Shown: in pieces, positions 11,167-27,774 of the stretch
Layout of the letters: every line of letters begins with the position of its first letter
Numbering within the stretch: the stretch's first letter is position 1
NCBI GenBank assembly: GCA_902791625.1
Contig: CADAWN010000002.1
Coordinates: forward strand, 4,929 to 68,928
DNA: 64,000 nucleotides
Reading direction: 5' to 3'
Origin: an uncultured Erysipelotrichaceae bacterium
GTDB taxonomy: Bacteria > Bacillota_I > Bacilli_A > RF39 > UBA660
The notes under the pieces: model-generated
Seen by the model: the letters and a program-made list of their open reading frames with translations, nothing else
The model's database searches: none
Told to the model about the DNA's origin: nothing
Translations under genes and position numbers: made by a program

Positions 11167-12471
11167 CTAATTACTTGTAAAAATAATATTTACAGGATAT
11201 TTTTCTACTTTCTTAACTTTAACTAGTTTTCTATCTTGATTACTAGAATCAGTTAACTTAGTCCTTACATAATCACTAAAATCAAGTGCATTCATTACTT
11301 CTTTAAATTTGTCATAACTTAGATTATTAAAATAATCTATATCAGAGTAATCTTCTGTATAATTCATGTGATCACCAAATGCTAATAGTTGATTATATTT
11401 ATCATCTAATTGTCTTATTCTTTCAGATAAAAACATCTTTTTAAGAGCAATAAAATCTTCTTCTGTTAAATTTTTTCTATTCATACCAATTAAAAAACAA
11501 TTATAATAATCAATAAAATTTCTAGTTACAACACTATTAACAAAGTATAGATAATTATCTACTTTTTCCATATGTAGTGCTTCAGAATGATCACATAAAC
11601 CATATCCAGCTATTGTAGAATAAGTAAGTTTAAATAAAAGTTTAGAAAAATAATATGCATCTTTTATATCTATTCCATCTGGTATTTTTGTTTTTATACC
11701 AAAACCATATAAATCGTTAACATCTTTTTTATAAAGTCTCTCACTTTTATTTCTAATAGAAGAATAATCATATTTAGGTAGTATTACTCTACTTTTATGT
11801 TCAGCTATATTTTTATATATACTATTTAGGTAATTAACTACTTCTTTTTCATCTAAGTTTCCACCTATAACTAGTACTTTATTTTGATCAGTATAAAAAG
11901 CATCATAACAAATTTTTAAATTTTCTATACTTATTTTTTTCTCTGTTTCTGTTGTGCCAAGAAAAAGTAAGGAATCATCATGTAATTCTACATCACCAAA
12001 TAAATTTTTTTCTGTAAGATGAGTTAACATAGCTGGATAATCATTCTCATACATTCTACATTCATCTATAATAGAATGTCTTGATTTTTCTACATCTTCA
12101 AATGTAAATCTAGGTTTATCAATAGCTTCAATTAATTTTTTAATAGATTCTTTTATATCTTTAGTTCCATAAAAATAATATGCAGTAAAATCTTTTTTAG
12201 TATAAGCATTATTTTCATATCCTTTTCTTGAAAAATAGTTTGTTAAATCACCATAGGAGCTACTTTCAAGAAGTAAATGTTCAAGATAATGTGCATACCC
12301 TGCTCCAACATCATAATCCTTTCCATCTAAATTAAACTTAAAGAATTCACCACTAAAACCATATTTAACTATATAATTCATAAATACTTGTTTCATTGAA
12401 GTATCTTGATATAAATATAGAGGTATTCCATTATCTAAAATAATCTTTTTATAATTATTCACAATCATCAC
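11167..12471 (-). CDS. M16-family zinc peptidase (active subunit)
   Basis: Inverted zinc motif HYLEH (HxxEH) in GYAHYLEHLLLES. Confidence 0.8.
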   Translation of the reverse strand: MMIVNNYKKIILDNGIPLYLYQDTSMKQVFMNYIVKYGFSGEFFKFNLDGKDYDVGAGYAHYLEHLLLESSSYGDLTNYFSRKGYENNAYTKKDFTAYYFYGTKDIKESIKKLIEAIDKPRFTFEDVEKSRHSIIDECRMYENDYPAMLTHLTEKNLFGDVELHDDSLLFLGTTETEKKISIENLKICYDAFYTDQNKVLVIGGNLDEKEVVNYLNSIYKNIAEHKSRVILPKYDYSSIRNKSERLYKKDVNDLYGFGIKTKIPDGIDIKDAYYFSKLLFKLTYSTIAGYGLCDHSEALHMEKVDNYLYFVNSVVTRNFIDYYNCFLIGMNRKNLTEEDFIALKKMFLSERIRQLDDKYNQLLAFGDHMNYTEDYSDIDYFNNLSYDKFKEVMNALDFSDYVRTKLTDSSNQDRKLVKVKKVEKYPVNIIFTSN

Positions 12472-25474: not shown

Positions 25475-25500
25475 AAAAACTGCATTACTGCAGTTTTTTT
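25475..25500 (-). terminator. Intrinsic terminator of the 25505-26803 gene
   Basis: 10-bp stem AAAAACTGCA/TGCAGTTTTT with a 4-nt loop, followed by a T-run on either strand. Confidence 0.65.
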
Positions 25501-25504
25501 ATTT

Positions 25505-26803
25505 TTATCCAATATCACTTGTATTTATTTCTATAACTGGGCGAACGCCGTAGTAGTCGTCGTCGCTGCAGTCGTCGTAGCTGAAGCTCGGGGCGTACGA
25601 AGACACATGCCACACGCTGCCATTGTCGTAAGCAGAACCAAGCCAAAATGGTGTTTTCTTAATGAATGACCCTTCTGGGCACGTATTTTCATTTGCATCA
25701 CATCCTAGACTTGTTGCTTCTTCAAAAGTTAATAACCTTCCTGTTATAGTTGATGGAGCTCCCATTTCGATTAATTTTGTTTTATATTGTTCTACATAGT
25801 AAGCTATGTTATATCCTGGTGTATTCCATCCATCATTTTCAAAATCAGGAGCTGTAGTTAGTGAACTATTATATACAAATGGTTTTGGATTTCCATCATA
25901 ACTTGCTCCAGTTGCATTATATGGACTTAGTAATCCATTTCCATCATCCCAGTAGTTTGTACTTGAGAAAGCTACTGTTGAATAATAAGAATTGCCATCA
26001 TATCCAATGGCATCTACACTTTGTAAACCATATCCTGGTGTTGACGGAGACATGTATGTATCCTCATAATTAGTGCTTTCATTATTGCTATATCCTACTA
26101 ATAAGTTGTATTTTGAAATTAACACTGTCTTTTCTTGATTACTTGATACTACATAGAAGTCTTCTGTTTCTCCTATTCCTACTATATCTCCTGGTTGTAA
26201 GTTACCTTTTTCTCCTTTTATAATTCTTACAGCACTTTGTTGCCCAGATTTTTCTCCTTGTACATAATCTACTTCAAATACTAGTTTCATTGTTTCTGTT
26301 GTTGAGTCATTCAATGTACTTGGATCTATATCTGTTTTATACCATACTCTTACTTTATACTTCTTTCTTGTTGGGGTATTTCCTTTTTTAGCTTCTAGAA
26401 CATCTCCTGCAGTAACATCTGCATCATTTTCTGCATATTTAACAGTATATCCAAGATAATCTGGTAAGTTCTTTGGTGTTGTTCCATCACTTTCATATAC
26501 ATTGTTCTTTACTCCATTTGGAGCTATTTTTGCATTTAAGCTTCCTTCATTTACAGCGTCACTATATTCTATTTGTGTCTTACCAGCATCTGTTACTCTT
26601 GCTCCATTTCCTTCTGATGTTGCTACACTTCCACTTGTTACTTGTATACTATTTTCATCCCAATATACATTCCATCTTGCACTTTTTACATCTGCACTAC
26701 CATTTATCTTTAATGTTGTAGCTATTGCCGCATATCCAATAGTAATTGCTAGAAGTAAAATAATTACAGTTAGTAATGTCTTATTCTTTTTGTTTTTCTT
26801 CAT
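25505..26803 (-). CDS. Membrane-anchored surface protein with lectin-like (DUF1566/DUF6273-like) C-terminal domain ending in a YGVRPV motif
   Basis: 432 aa with an N-terminal signal anchor. The C-terminus FWLGSAY...YYGVRPVIEI parallels WWLATGN...YAGLRPVIHL in ORF 44873-46078. The gene has its own promoter and terminator. Confidence 0.6.
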   Translation of the reverse strand: MKKNKKNKTLLTVIILLLAITIGYAAIATTLKINGSADVKSARWNVYWDENSIQVTSGSVATSEGNGARVTDAGKTQIEYSDAVNEGSLNAKIAPNGVKNNVYESDGTTPKNLPDYLGYTVKYAENDADVTAGDVLEAKKGNTPTRKKYKVRVWYKTDIDPSTLNDSTTETMKLVFEVDYVQGEKSGQQSAVRIIKGEKGNLQPGDIVGIGETEDFYVVSSNQEKTVLISKYNLLVGYSNNESTNYEDTYMSPSTPGYGLQSVDAIGYDGNSYYSTVAFSSTNYWDDGNGLLSPYNATGASYDGNPKPFVYNSSLTTAPDFENDGWNTPGYNIAYYVEQYKTKLIEMGAPSTITGRLLTFEEATSLGCDANENTCPEGSFIKKTPFWLGSAYDNGSVWHVSSYAPSFSYDDCSDDDYYGVRPVIEINTSDIG

Positions 26804-26830: not shown

Positions 26831-26860
26831 AGTATACCCCCCCCCACTGAATTTTGTCAA
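26831..26860 (-). promoter_or_regulatory. Sigma-A-type promoter (TTGACA, 18-nt spacer, TATACT) with a G9 tract in the spacer
   Basis: Minus strand reads caCATTGACAaaattcagtGGGGGGGGGTATACTatt...GGAGGaaaagaATG. The -35 is at 26855-26860 and the -10 at 26831-26836. Confidence 0.65.
26837..26845. repeat. Homopolymeric C9/G9 tract
   Basis: Nine consecutive C on the plus strand. It is the only long G/C homopolymer I saw in this AT-rich window. Confidence 0.95.
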
Positions 26861-26882: not shown

Positions 26883-27774
26883 CTATACTAACTCATATTC
26901 ACTTGATAATATTCTTTTGTCACTTGAATACTTAATTATATATTTATTATCTTTTTTAGTAATTATTATTCCTATAGTTTTATCTTGATTTATTCTTCTT
27001 AAATTATTATCTATATAATTCATATATACCTCAATCTGACCAATATGTTCTTTTTTTAACTCTGTTACTTTTAACTCTACTACTACTAAACTCTATATTA
27101 AATAGTAATAAATCTATGTAGTTATAAGTATTACCTATTTTTATCTTATATTCATTACCAACATAACTATATCCATTACTTAGTTGTAATAAAAAACTAT
27201 CTAGATTATTTAATATAGATTCTTTTAAAGCATATTCAGAAAACTTTTCCTTTGATGAAGTCTTTTTAATAATTATTGGATTAGGTATTAAATCTTTTAT
27301 ATCAAGTTCTTGTCGTTTTATAATTTTATTCTTTGTATTATTAGGTAATCTATTATAAGTATTGTTTTTTATTAAATCATGTAATTGTCTCTGAGTTAGG
27401 TTTTTATTCTCACACTCATTTAAATAATATATTATCTCATTTATATTTTTAAGTGATAAAACTTCACGATAATGACTCCAACTCAATTTGGAACGCAATG
27501 TGTTCCATTTTATTTCATTTAGCATTTCATAGAATTGCCTCATATATCTTAGATTTCTTTCATTATATTTTTTACCAACTTCAATCATTAGTTTATCTGA
27601 ATACTGTTTAATTATATTTTTACCATATTCTTTACCTGCTTCACTTAATAATCTTCCTATTTTGAAATATACAAATACTTTATTTCTATCTTTTGAATAA
27701 TCTTTTGCTCTATCATATATTTCACTTTTTATTAATTCTTCTTTTATACTTTTATAATAATCCGTAATTATCAC
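26883..27774 (-). pseudogene. DUF1016/YhcG-type PD-(D/E)xK nuclease-like gene, frameshifted near 27085-27095
   Basis: The track ORF ends ...YIDLLLFNIEFSSSRVKSNRVKKRTYWSD. The +1 frame continues SLVVELKVTELKKEHIGQIEVYMNYIDNNLRRINQDKTIGIIITKKDNKYIIKYSSDKRILSSEYELV to a TAG at 26883-26885, restoring the family's conserved VVELK core and C-terminus. Confidence 0.7.

Follow-up and report, generated by a model that had tools for sequence, protein, structure and literature searches.

The mechanism of diversity-generating retroelements (DGRs) is already well known. Adenine mutagenesis, a codon design built on AAC, boundaries of the initiation of mutagenic homing (IMH) type, Avd and MutS-like (MSL) accessory proteins, lectin-like tips and remote targets have all been described (PMC5758913). 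The 'Architecture D' DGRs, in which an MSL accessory protein accompanies avd, include the element of Legionella pneumophila with its target LdtA (Wu et al. 2018, PMC5758913), and the DUF1566/Lcl-type class makes up the 'category d' (CLec2) targets (PMC5758913). The DGR of Bordetella phage BPP-1 (Mtd, template repeat (TR), Avd, bRT) is the mechanistic prototype, and that of Treponema denticola (TvpA) is the classic case of multiple remote targets. Here we describe a locus in a stretch of 64,000 nucleotides (64 kb, hereafter the window) from an uncultured lineage of ruminant-gut Bacilli. A minus-strand gene of the window ends in a G+C-rich island, 25538-25642, which is very probably a variable region (VR) written by a DGR, the gene being a remote target of the element. 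The evidence consists of an adenine-specific signature relative to a related TR, variability confined to the VR, complete retroelement cassettes in relatives, and target genes of related genomes with no cassette within 10 kb.

The locus resembles the Architecture D elements, and the Legionella DGR among them, in that the cassettes of its relatives consist of a TR, a small protein with a MutS_I domain, bAvd and a reverse transcriptase (RT), and in that the VR takes up the final ~100 nt of the C-terminal domain in the target. It recalls the category d targets by a weak fold match of the variable domain to the DUF1566/Lcl-type class. It departs from these elements in its host, of 26% G+C, and in its target, whose N-terminal part is camelysin/TasA-like and which bears a membrane or signal helix in place of a lipoprotein signal; the target has no Pfam DUF1566 match, and several TR variants of different lengths exist per lineage. 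Like the Treponema DGR, one retroelement family serves dispersed target genes with common VR ends; the Treponema element, however, has HRDC instead of MSL and a C-type lectin domain of the FGE-sulfatase type, and differs from the present family in that the latter has extra TR copies, one of which (at the locus designated L009) has no adjacent RT. With BPP-1 it has in common what appears to be adenine-specific mutagenesis, an AAC-codon design avoiding stop codons, a VR at the 3' end of the gene, and a G+C-rich element that limits TR/VR identity on the 3' side, with divergence after it (IMH versus IMH*). Unlike that of BPP-1, the element is not phage-borne, and no relative turned up when viral_contigs was scanned; its G+C element measures 11 nt, and the only hairpin past the window VR is that of the terminator-like signal, 40 nt downstream.

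Less ordinary are how many TR variants exist that differ in length but share their ends, the way in which TRs and targets are cross-used, the occurrence of alleles of 27 and of 24 codons at one locus, and the TasA/camelysin-like nature of the targets. The locus also illustrates that raw sequence alone, through its composition and codon pattern, can suffice to recognise a DGR target even when the retroelement lies tens of kb off or on another contig. Remote targets are the class that large surveys miss; the survey approach of Roux et al. 2021 does not detect them (PMC8144416). Finally, the locus adds a hypervariable, predicted surface protein family in abundant but uncultured ruminant-gut Bacilli.

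Composition and codon pattern of the variable region

The G+C content of the window averages 26.0%, with a standard deviation of 5.5% over 100-nt windows. The original prediction had pointed out that 59 of the 100 nt at 25541-25640 are G or C, that 14 consecutive NNC codons lie at 25547-25588, and that every adenine of the island except the third base of a CCA codon sits at codon position 1 or 2. All three counts were reproduced. Indeed, 25507-25686 is the sole stretch in the 64 kb to reach at least 50% G+C in 100-nt windows. The unbroken row of NNC codons is that of codons 406-419 (25588-25547; AGC TTC AGC TAC GAC GAC TGC AGC GAC GAC GAC TAC TAC GGC), whereas C occupies the third position in 6.5% of the gene's other 387 codons, the naive chance of such a run being ~2e-17. 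In codons 388-422 the adenines are distributed 5/13/1 over codon positions 1/2/3, the lone third-position adenine being that of CCA; elsewhere in the gene the figures are 148/144/201. None of these counts is plausible by chance. In all, 21 of the 35 codons of the VR end in C, and the VR stops 33 nt ahead of the stop codon, at the 3' end of the target gene, on codons of the AAC type, which can be mutagenized without giving stop codons, as is characteristic of DGR variable regions. It reads CTT GGT TCT GCT TAC GAC AAT GGC AGC GTG TGG CAT GTG TCT TCG TAC GCC CCG AGC TTC AGC TAC GAC GAC TGC AGC GAC GAC GAC TAC TAC GGC GTT CGC CCA.

The same codons are those at which the protein family varies. In an alignment of 32 homologs (A1), the C-terminus has the form WLGSA-xxxx-VW-x-V-xxxxxx-F-xxxx-Y-xxxxxx-GVRPVIEI, in which the scaffold residues are invariant or nearly so and the x columns are mostly N/D/Y/S/G/F/C/H, the repertoire reachable from AAC by adenine changes. 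The hypervariable columns coincide exactly with the NNC codons of the window, between the invariant W, V, F and GVRPV. The window protein itself ends WLGSA...GVRPVIEI, in keeping with the W...GVRPV ending that had been noted for the domain.

Templates and cassettes in related genomes

A search of a large protein collection returned 401 homologs of the target protein, nearly all unnamed and metagenomic. A genome scan located relatives in metagenome-assembled genomes (MAGs) of uncultured 'Bacilli/Bacillales bacterium' from the rumen, omasum and intestine of cattle, sheep, goat and deer; one such MAG (L039) has ~79% nucleotide identity to the housekeeping genes of the window. Each genome contains several paralogs whose VR flanks are identical, with at least seven loci in the MAG UBA7476.

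A motif scan of the loci detected RTs with IGNMSSQ and YMDD, which fit the DGR-clade motifs (I/L)GxxxSQ and YxDD, in L005 and L013. In L005, which belongs to UBA7476, the order is target with a G+C-rich VR, TR, MSL, bAvd and RT. The TR, an AAC/AAT-rich copy of the VR, lies 180 nt downstream, at 11455-11570. The MSL protein (144 aa) matches MutS_I (PF01624, E = 1.3e-8) above the cutoff; bAvd (127 aa) matches PF22296 (E = 6.5e-10, 39.9 bits for a cutoff of 40) and NF033474 (E = 1.6e-11, 44.5 bits for a cutoff of 80), in both cases below the curated cutoff; and the RT (382 aa) matches RVT_1 with E = 3.5e-15. L013 and L061-L068 carry this same cassette, and a DGR-type RT is present in L005, L013 and L061-L069. 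Two insertion sites are known, pcrA...ligA and DUF1846...Metallophos, neither inside the window, and cassettes occur at more than one locus in related genomes.

Seven distinct TRs were collected, all of which end GGCGTTCGCCC. Scanning metagenomes for GTTCGCCCAACTTTTCATAAAAC, a 3' pattern specific to TRs, contributed only two extra TRs, neither of them cognate, and RT-based look-ups returned TR_L005 again (in L061) together with TR_L064; L070 begins just past its TR, which is thus lost. No antisense open reading frame (ORF) across the TR was called by gene callers in L061 or L064. In cognate pairs the VR differs from the TR at adenines and nowhere else: VR_L005 differs from TR_L005 at 21 of 40 A positions and 0 of 67 non-A positions, VR_L061 from the same TR at 19 of 40 and 0 of 64, and VR_L064 from TR_L064 at 18 of 38 (18 of 39 in a hand codon alignment) and 0 of 60.

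One of these templates is TR_L064, identical in five contigs from five samples: CTT GGT TCT GCT AAC AAC AAT AAC AAC GTG TGG AAT GTG AAT GAA GGT AAC TTC AAC AAC AAC AAC TAC AAC AAC GAC AAC AAC AAC GGC GTT CGC CCA. Outside codons 402-405, a four-codon middle block left out of the count since it does not fit the TR, the window VR differs from it at 19 of 37 A positions and at 0 of 56 non-A positions (Fisher p = 6e-10). TR_L064 also accounts for the T-ending codons AAT, CAT and TCT and for the AT-type 5' edge GGT TCT GCT, which is absent from the other TR types. The proposal that the island had been produced by adenine mutagenesis of a DGR template is supported by these figures, together with the variation of homologs at the same codons and the AAC/AAT-rich TR copies of relatives. 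The middle block, TCG TAC GCC CCG, has GAA GGT as its counterpart in TR_L064 and TCG AAC GGC in TR_L013, and CCG occurs in VR_L002, so that variants of the block do exist; it points to an unseen TR variant or a hybrid. A protein search with the C-terminal 110 aa for sibling VRs with the same block gave nine proteins, none of that type. Because the block fits no collected TR, the genome's own TR is predicted to be TR_L064-like with a different four-codon block, approximately CTTGGTTCTGCT AAC AAC AAT AAC AAC GTG TGG AAT GTG AAT (T/A)(C/A)G AAC (G/A)(C/A)C CCG AAC TTC AAC AAC AAC AAC TAC AAC AAC GAC AAC AAC (A/T)AC GGC GTT CGC CCA A; its 3' end, if present, would be GTTCGCCCAAYTTTTCAT.

The limits of homology are sharp. 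The 11-nt GGCGTTCGCCC, at 25549-25539 in the window, is the 3' boundary common to 7 of 7 TRs and to every DGR-like VR collected. Beyond it the VRs go on (A/G)GTTATAGAAAT and the TRs AA(C/T)TTTTCATAAAAC; that is, a shared G+C-rich element is followed by divergence, into RGTTATAGAAAT in VRs and AAYTTTTCATAAAAC in TRs, the continuation in the seven collected TRs being AA(C/T)TTTTCATAAAACTTAGGATT. TR and VR are identical up to GGCGTTCGCCC and diverge right after it, as anticipated when an IMH-like role was suggested for this element, and the ends have the appearance of an IMH/IMH* arrangement.

The proposed mechanism is as follows. The cassettes of these uncultured, low-G+C Bacilli of the ruminant gut are ordered target, TR, MSL, bAvd, RT. 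The TR RNA, an AAC/AAT-rich copy of the VR, would be copied by the RT with misincorporation opposite template adenines, and the cDNA would then replace the VR in any gene with the shared ends, which are CTTGG(G/T)TC(G/T)GCT (5') and GGCGTTCGCCC (3'). Template adenines could in this way become any base while the position-3 C and the scaffold codons would be copied faithfully, which would leave an NNC run and a G+C island in a 26% G+C genome. We infer that a cassette of its own exists, or existed until recently, elsewhere in the genome, and that the TR of this cassette resembles TR_L064 except in the four-codon middle block; given that the VR was DGR-written at a remote target, the cassette is probably still present.

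Several further features of the cassettes were observed. The stretch right after the TR of L005 (11566-11675) is non-coding, is 86-96% conserved among cassettes, and has a sub-threshold match to the Rfam RT-14 RNA (26 bits for a gathering score of 48); it may be a spacer or a priming RNA. A PD-(D/E)XK transposase-family protein (PDDEXK_2) lies directly 3' of the RT in the pcrA...ligA cassettes (L005 13888-14907, L013 2935-3948) and may be related to movement of the cassette between loci. UBA7476 also has a second, distant RT-like ORF (L012 12591-12995), with ~32% identity to the DGR RT over ~125 aa.

Variation between syntenic strains

Comparison with orthologs in related strains, a test named in advance, was made possible by two loci, L059 and L060, which come from two samples of another study. 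Both are syntenic with the window (DUF1016, target, 99-aa ORF, GT2, GT1) and match it at 94-98% identity over 2.4 and 5 kb. On either side of the VR, for ~130 nt upstream and ~90 nt downstream, no difference separates the three sequences (100% identity). Within the VR, L059 and L060 differ from the window at ~36 positions and are 9 nt shorter, the VR core having 24 codons against 27 in the window. Over the 3' 800 nt of the gene, the window and L059 show 0-4 differences per 60 nt; none falls in the 240 nt that precede the VR, ~36 lie in the VR itself and 1 follows it. Hypervariability is therefore confined to the VR between otherwise near-identical alleles, an outcome that favours a DGR. The 3' edge reads CCCA in the window, as in the TRs, and CCCG in L059/L060, a difference that sits in the expected place for the limit of cDNA transfer. 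The VR of L059/L060 differs from TR_L064 at 22 of 37 A positions and 0 of 59 non-A positions, one AAC codon being lost.

Outside the VR, the gene of L060 contains a dense patch of ~30 substitutions relative to both L059 and the window (L060 ~1790-1900, window equivalent 25845-25960). The patch has the look of a recombination event involving a paralog (compare P0004 with P0007 and P0023).

Targets and templates away from cassettes

For at least 25 kb around the window VR there is no cassette, and blastn with 7-nt words found no TR-like copy of the VR in the window. Other targets are in a similar situation. In L071, a partly syntenic locus of another species, the VR has 0 of 60 non-A mismatches to TR_L064, and no RT, Avd or MSL gene was called within 10 kb; nor was an RT found within 10 kb at L001-L004, around close homologs. 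The window VR and VR_L071, with the cases of UBA7476 and L009 that follow, point to remote targeting as a normal condition in this lineage.

In UBA7476, VR_L007 (L007 2700-2804) lies on a contig other than that of TR_L010 or of any cassette and yet fits TR_L010, with 15 of 36 A and 1 of 68 non-A positions differing. The VR beside TR_L010 (L010 11092-11513) has 15 non-A mismatches to TR_L010 itself and fits instead TR_L005 (27 of 40 A, 2 of 67 non-A positions differing). These counts indicate that templates and targets are cross-used in this genome. Templates, too, may stand apart from an RT. In MAG RGIG8845, L009 1000-1345 holds a TR that adjoins a target gene and has its conserved non-coding DNA on both sides; next come an unrelated 387-aa ORF and fmt in place of MSL, Avd and RT, the full cassette of this MAG being in L013.

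The 27- and 24-codon alleles of one locus, the cross-use in UBA7476 and the TR of L009 without an RT hint at a multi-template, multi-locus DGR network, in which TR variants with VR cores of 24-27 codons and the same ends compete for dispersed targets. The different lengths of the TRs and the TasA/camelysin-like targets lend this reading some further support, and we put it forward tentatively, as a possibility against which the balance still lies. In such a network a locus could be switched between loop lengths as well as point-diversified, and its targets, a class of which we found no description, would be secreted or fibre proteins that resemble TasA/camelysin and bear a diversified, lectin-like tip. 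Loci with and without cassettes, together with the several TR variants, form a set for studying how a DGR network gains and loses targets.

Origin of the window allele

A number of observations weigh against the view that the island is the DGR-written VR of a remote target. No RT, Avd or MutS-like gene, TR or cassette non-coding DNA was found in the 64-kb window, which extends the earlier statement that it holds neither RT nor TR. The exact cognate TR was not found in the window or in the related loci, and the middle block has no match in any of the seven collected TRs; TR_L064, for its part, was drawn from samples other than that of the window and possibly from a different species. Cassette-less alleles exist in the relatives L001 and L072. 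The VR is the same in L059 and L060, from two samples, despite differences elsewhere in the gene, which suggests that rewriting is occasional and that diversification is not continuous. Finally, a 42-nt deletion in the target gene and a frameshift in its neighbour (see below) may reflect local decay.

Alternatively, the VR would be an orphan or fossil, once written by a DGR and frozen since the cassette was lost from the genome, an explanation that we consider rather unlikely but by no means negligible. The DUF1846...Metallophos locus carries the TR-MSL-Avd-RT block in L061 and L064 and lacks it in L001 and L072, where only 62 nt separate the target from the Metallophos gene (L001 11344-11406, L072 11314-11377, in the order DUF1846, 526-aa ORF, target, Metallophos); loss of the retroelement does, therefore, occur in the lineage. 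VR_L001 has three non-adenine mismatches to its best TR, all G/C-to-A/T, as decay would give, and the loop of L072 is AT-rich and not DGR-like. The VR common to L059 and L060 and the lesions near the window VR go in the same direction. The window VR, however, bears no trace of A/T-ward decay: it has no non-adenine mismatch to TR_L064 outside the middle block, and its 14 NNC codons are intact in a gene otherwise so poor in C-ending codons. Moreover, since relatives have cassettes at more than one locus, the absence of a cassette from one locus, or from 64 kb, tells little.

The paralogs with identical VR flanks also offer possible donors for homologous recombination, and the window allele could have arisen by gene conversion with a paralogous target VR instead of by fresh retrohoming at this locus. 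The window VR is indeed mosaic-like, with TR_L064-like ends and a middle block that resembles TCG...GxC of TR_L013 and CCG of VR_L002, and a separate recombination-like patch exists elsewhere in the gene of L060. We nevertheless hold this course of events to be improbable. The difference from the syntenic strains starts and stops at the limits of TR/VR homology, with the A of the TR at the 3' edge in the window, as cDNA transfer predicts; and since any donor VR would have been made by a DGR in its turn, gene conversion would alter the last step only. As to explanations that dispense with a retroelement, whether an insertion of foreign G+C-rich DNA or ordinary selection for a loop rich in Tyr, Asp and Ser, the compositional contrast is the sole point in their favour and we find them scarcely credible. 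The stretch is colinear with AAC-rich templates that stand beside RTs in relatives and differs from them at template adenines, and L072 encodes the same domain with native AT-rich codons; the foreign patch is excluded on these grounds. Of the origins first envisaged for the island, a trans target, an orphan or fossil VR and a foreign recombination patch, it is thus the two DGR-written ones that stand.

The target protein

Pfam and NCBIfam searches with the window protein gave no real match, and a PDB sequence-profile search gave nothing. In some homologs the beta-sandwich domain is camelysin/TasA-like: among the 86 sequences of alignment A5, seven match Peptidase_M73 in their N-terminal part, and eight match DUF6273. 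AlphaFold models the C-terminal 243 residues with a pLDDT of 94.7. With the full-length model, the Foldseek matches were all weak and of the pilin and Ig-like kinds, owing to the N-terminal sandwich. The C-terminal domain alone matched weakly the C-terminal domain of Legionella Lcl (TM 0.51 on target, E = 0.19), and the other weak matches were to EgtB/OvoA, snake C-type lectins and a Bacteroides fimbrial protein; matches to viral DUF6273 and DUF1566 proteins had E about 1e-3. From the fold matches, weak but thematically consistent, and the DUF6273 and camelysin matches, the protein is likely, though not proven, to be secreted or located at the surface and to carry a tip that is C-type-lectin-like and related to DUF1566. 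The DUF1566-like label first given to the domain is, in this sense, weakly supported by structure (DUF1566, DUF6273 and Lcl-type matches) and finds no counterpart in Pfam. The protein would be surface-exposed, with a variable tip that binds a ligand. In L072, the same domain carries a 38-aa AT-rich loop without diversification, which indicates that the fold does not require a G+C-rich NNC run.

Relative to its homologs, the target gene lacks 42 nt, encoding 14 aa (VELSEPGDFYEFTV), which form a nearly invariant strand of the N-terminal domain kept in 31 of 31 aligned homologs. GTAGA microhomology flanks both ends of the deleted piece, and the AlphaFold model is poor around the deletion (pLDDT <50, residues 52-79).

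Other features of the locus

The coordinates of the features are collected in Table 1. The upstream DUF1016/YhcG-like gene (window 26886-27774) has a frameshift near 27082-27092 relative to its 296-aa ortholog in L059 and is either a pseudogene or the result of an assembly error. Signals resembling a promoter and a terminator bracket the target gene.

Table 1. Features of the target gene and its putative DGR-written variable region (window coordinates)
Feature	Position	Strand	Remarks
Probable DGR target gene, 432 aa	25505..26803	-	N-terminal hydrophobic helix, beta-sandwich domain, confidently modelled C-terminal domain ending in the VR
Probable variable region (VR)	25538..25642	-	TR-homologous stretch, CTT GGT TCT GCT to GGC GTT CGC CCA; aligned with seven TRs and other VRs
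Diversified codons 392-418	25550..25630	-	Counterparts of template AAC/AAT/TAC/GAC codons; codon-level comparison and alignment A1
Fixed scaffold codons within the diversified stretch	GTG TGG 25610-25615, GTG 25604-25606, TTC 25583-25585	-	Codon-level comparison
Middle block TCG TAC GCC CCG (codons 402-405)	25589..25600	-	Unexplained by any collected TR
5' edge of TR/VR homology, CTT GGT TCT GCT	25631..25642	-	Same as TR_L064; other TR types have GGG TCG GCT
IMH-like G+C-rich 3' boundary, GGCGTTCGCCC plus A	25538..25549	-	TR/VR identity ends here
Promoter-like site (TTGACA, 18 nt spacer, TATACT)	26831..26860	-	Just 5' of the start codon; consensus scan, 11/12 matches, consensus match only
Terminator-like hairpin, 10-bp stem	25475..25498	.	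3' of the stop codon, 40 nt beyond the VR end; z-score -2.6; consensus match only; possibly bidirectional
42-nt in-frame deletion site, N-terminal domain	26560..26561	-	Relative to all aligned homologs; VELSEPGDFYEFTV removed

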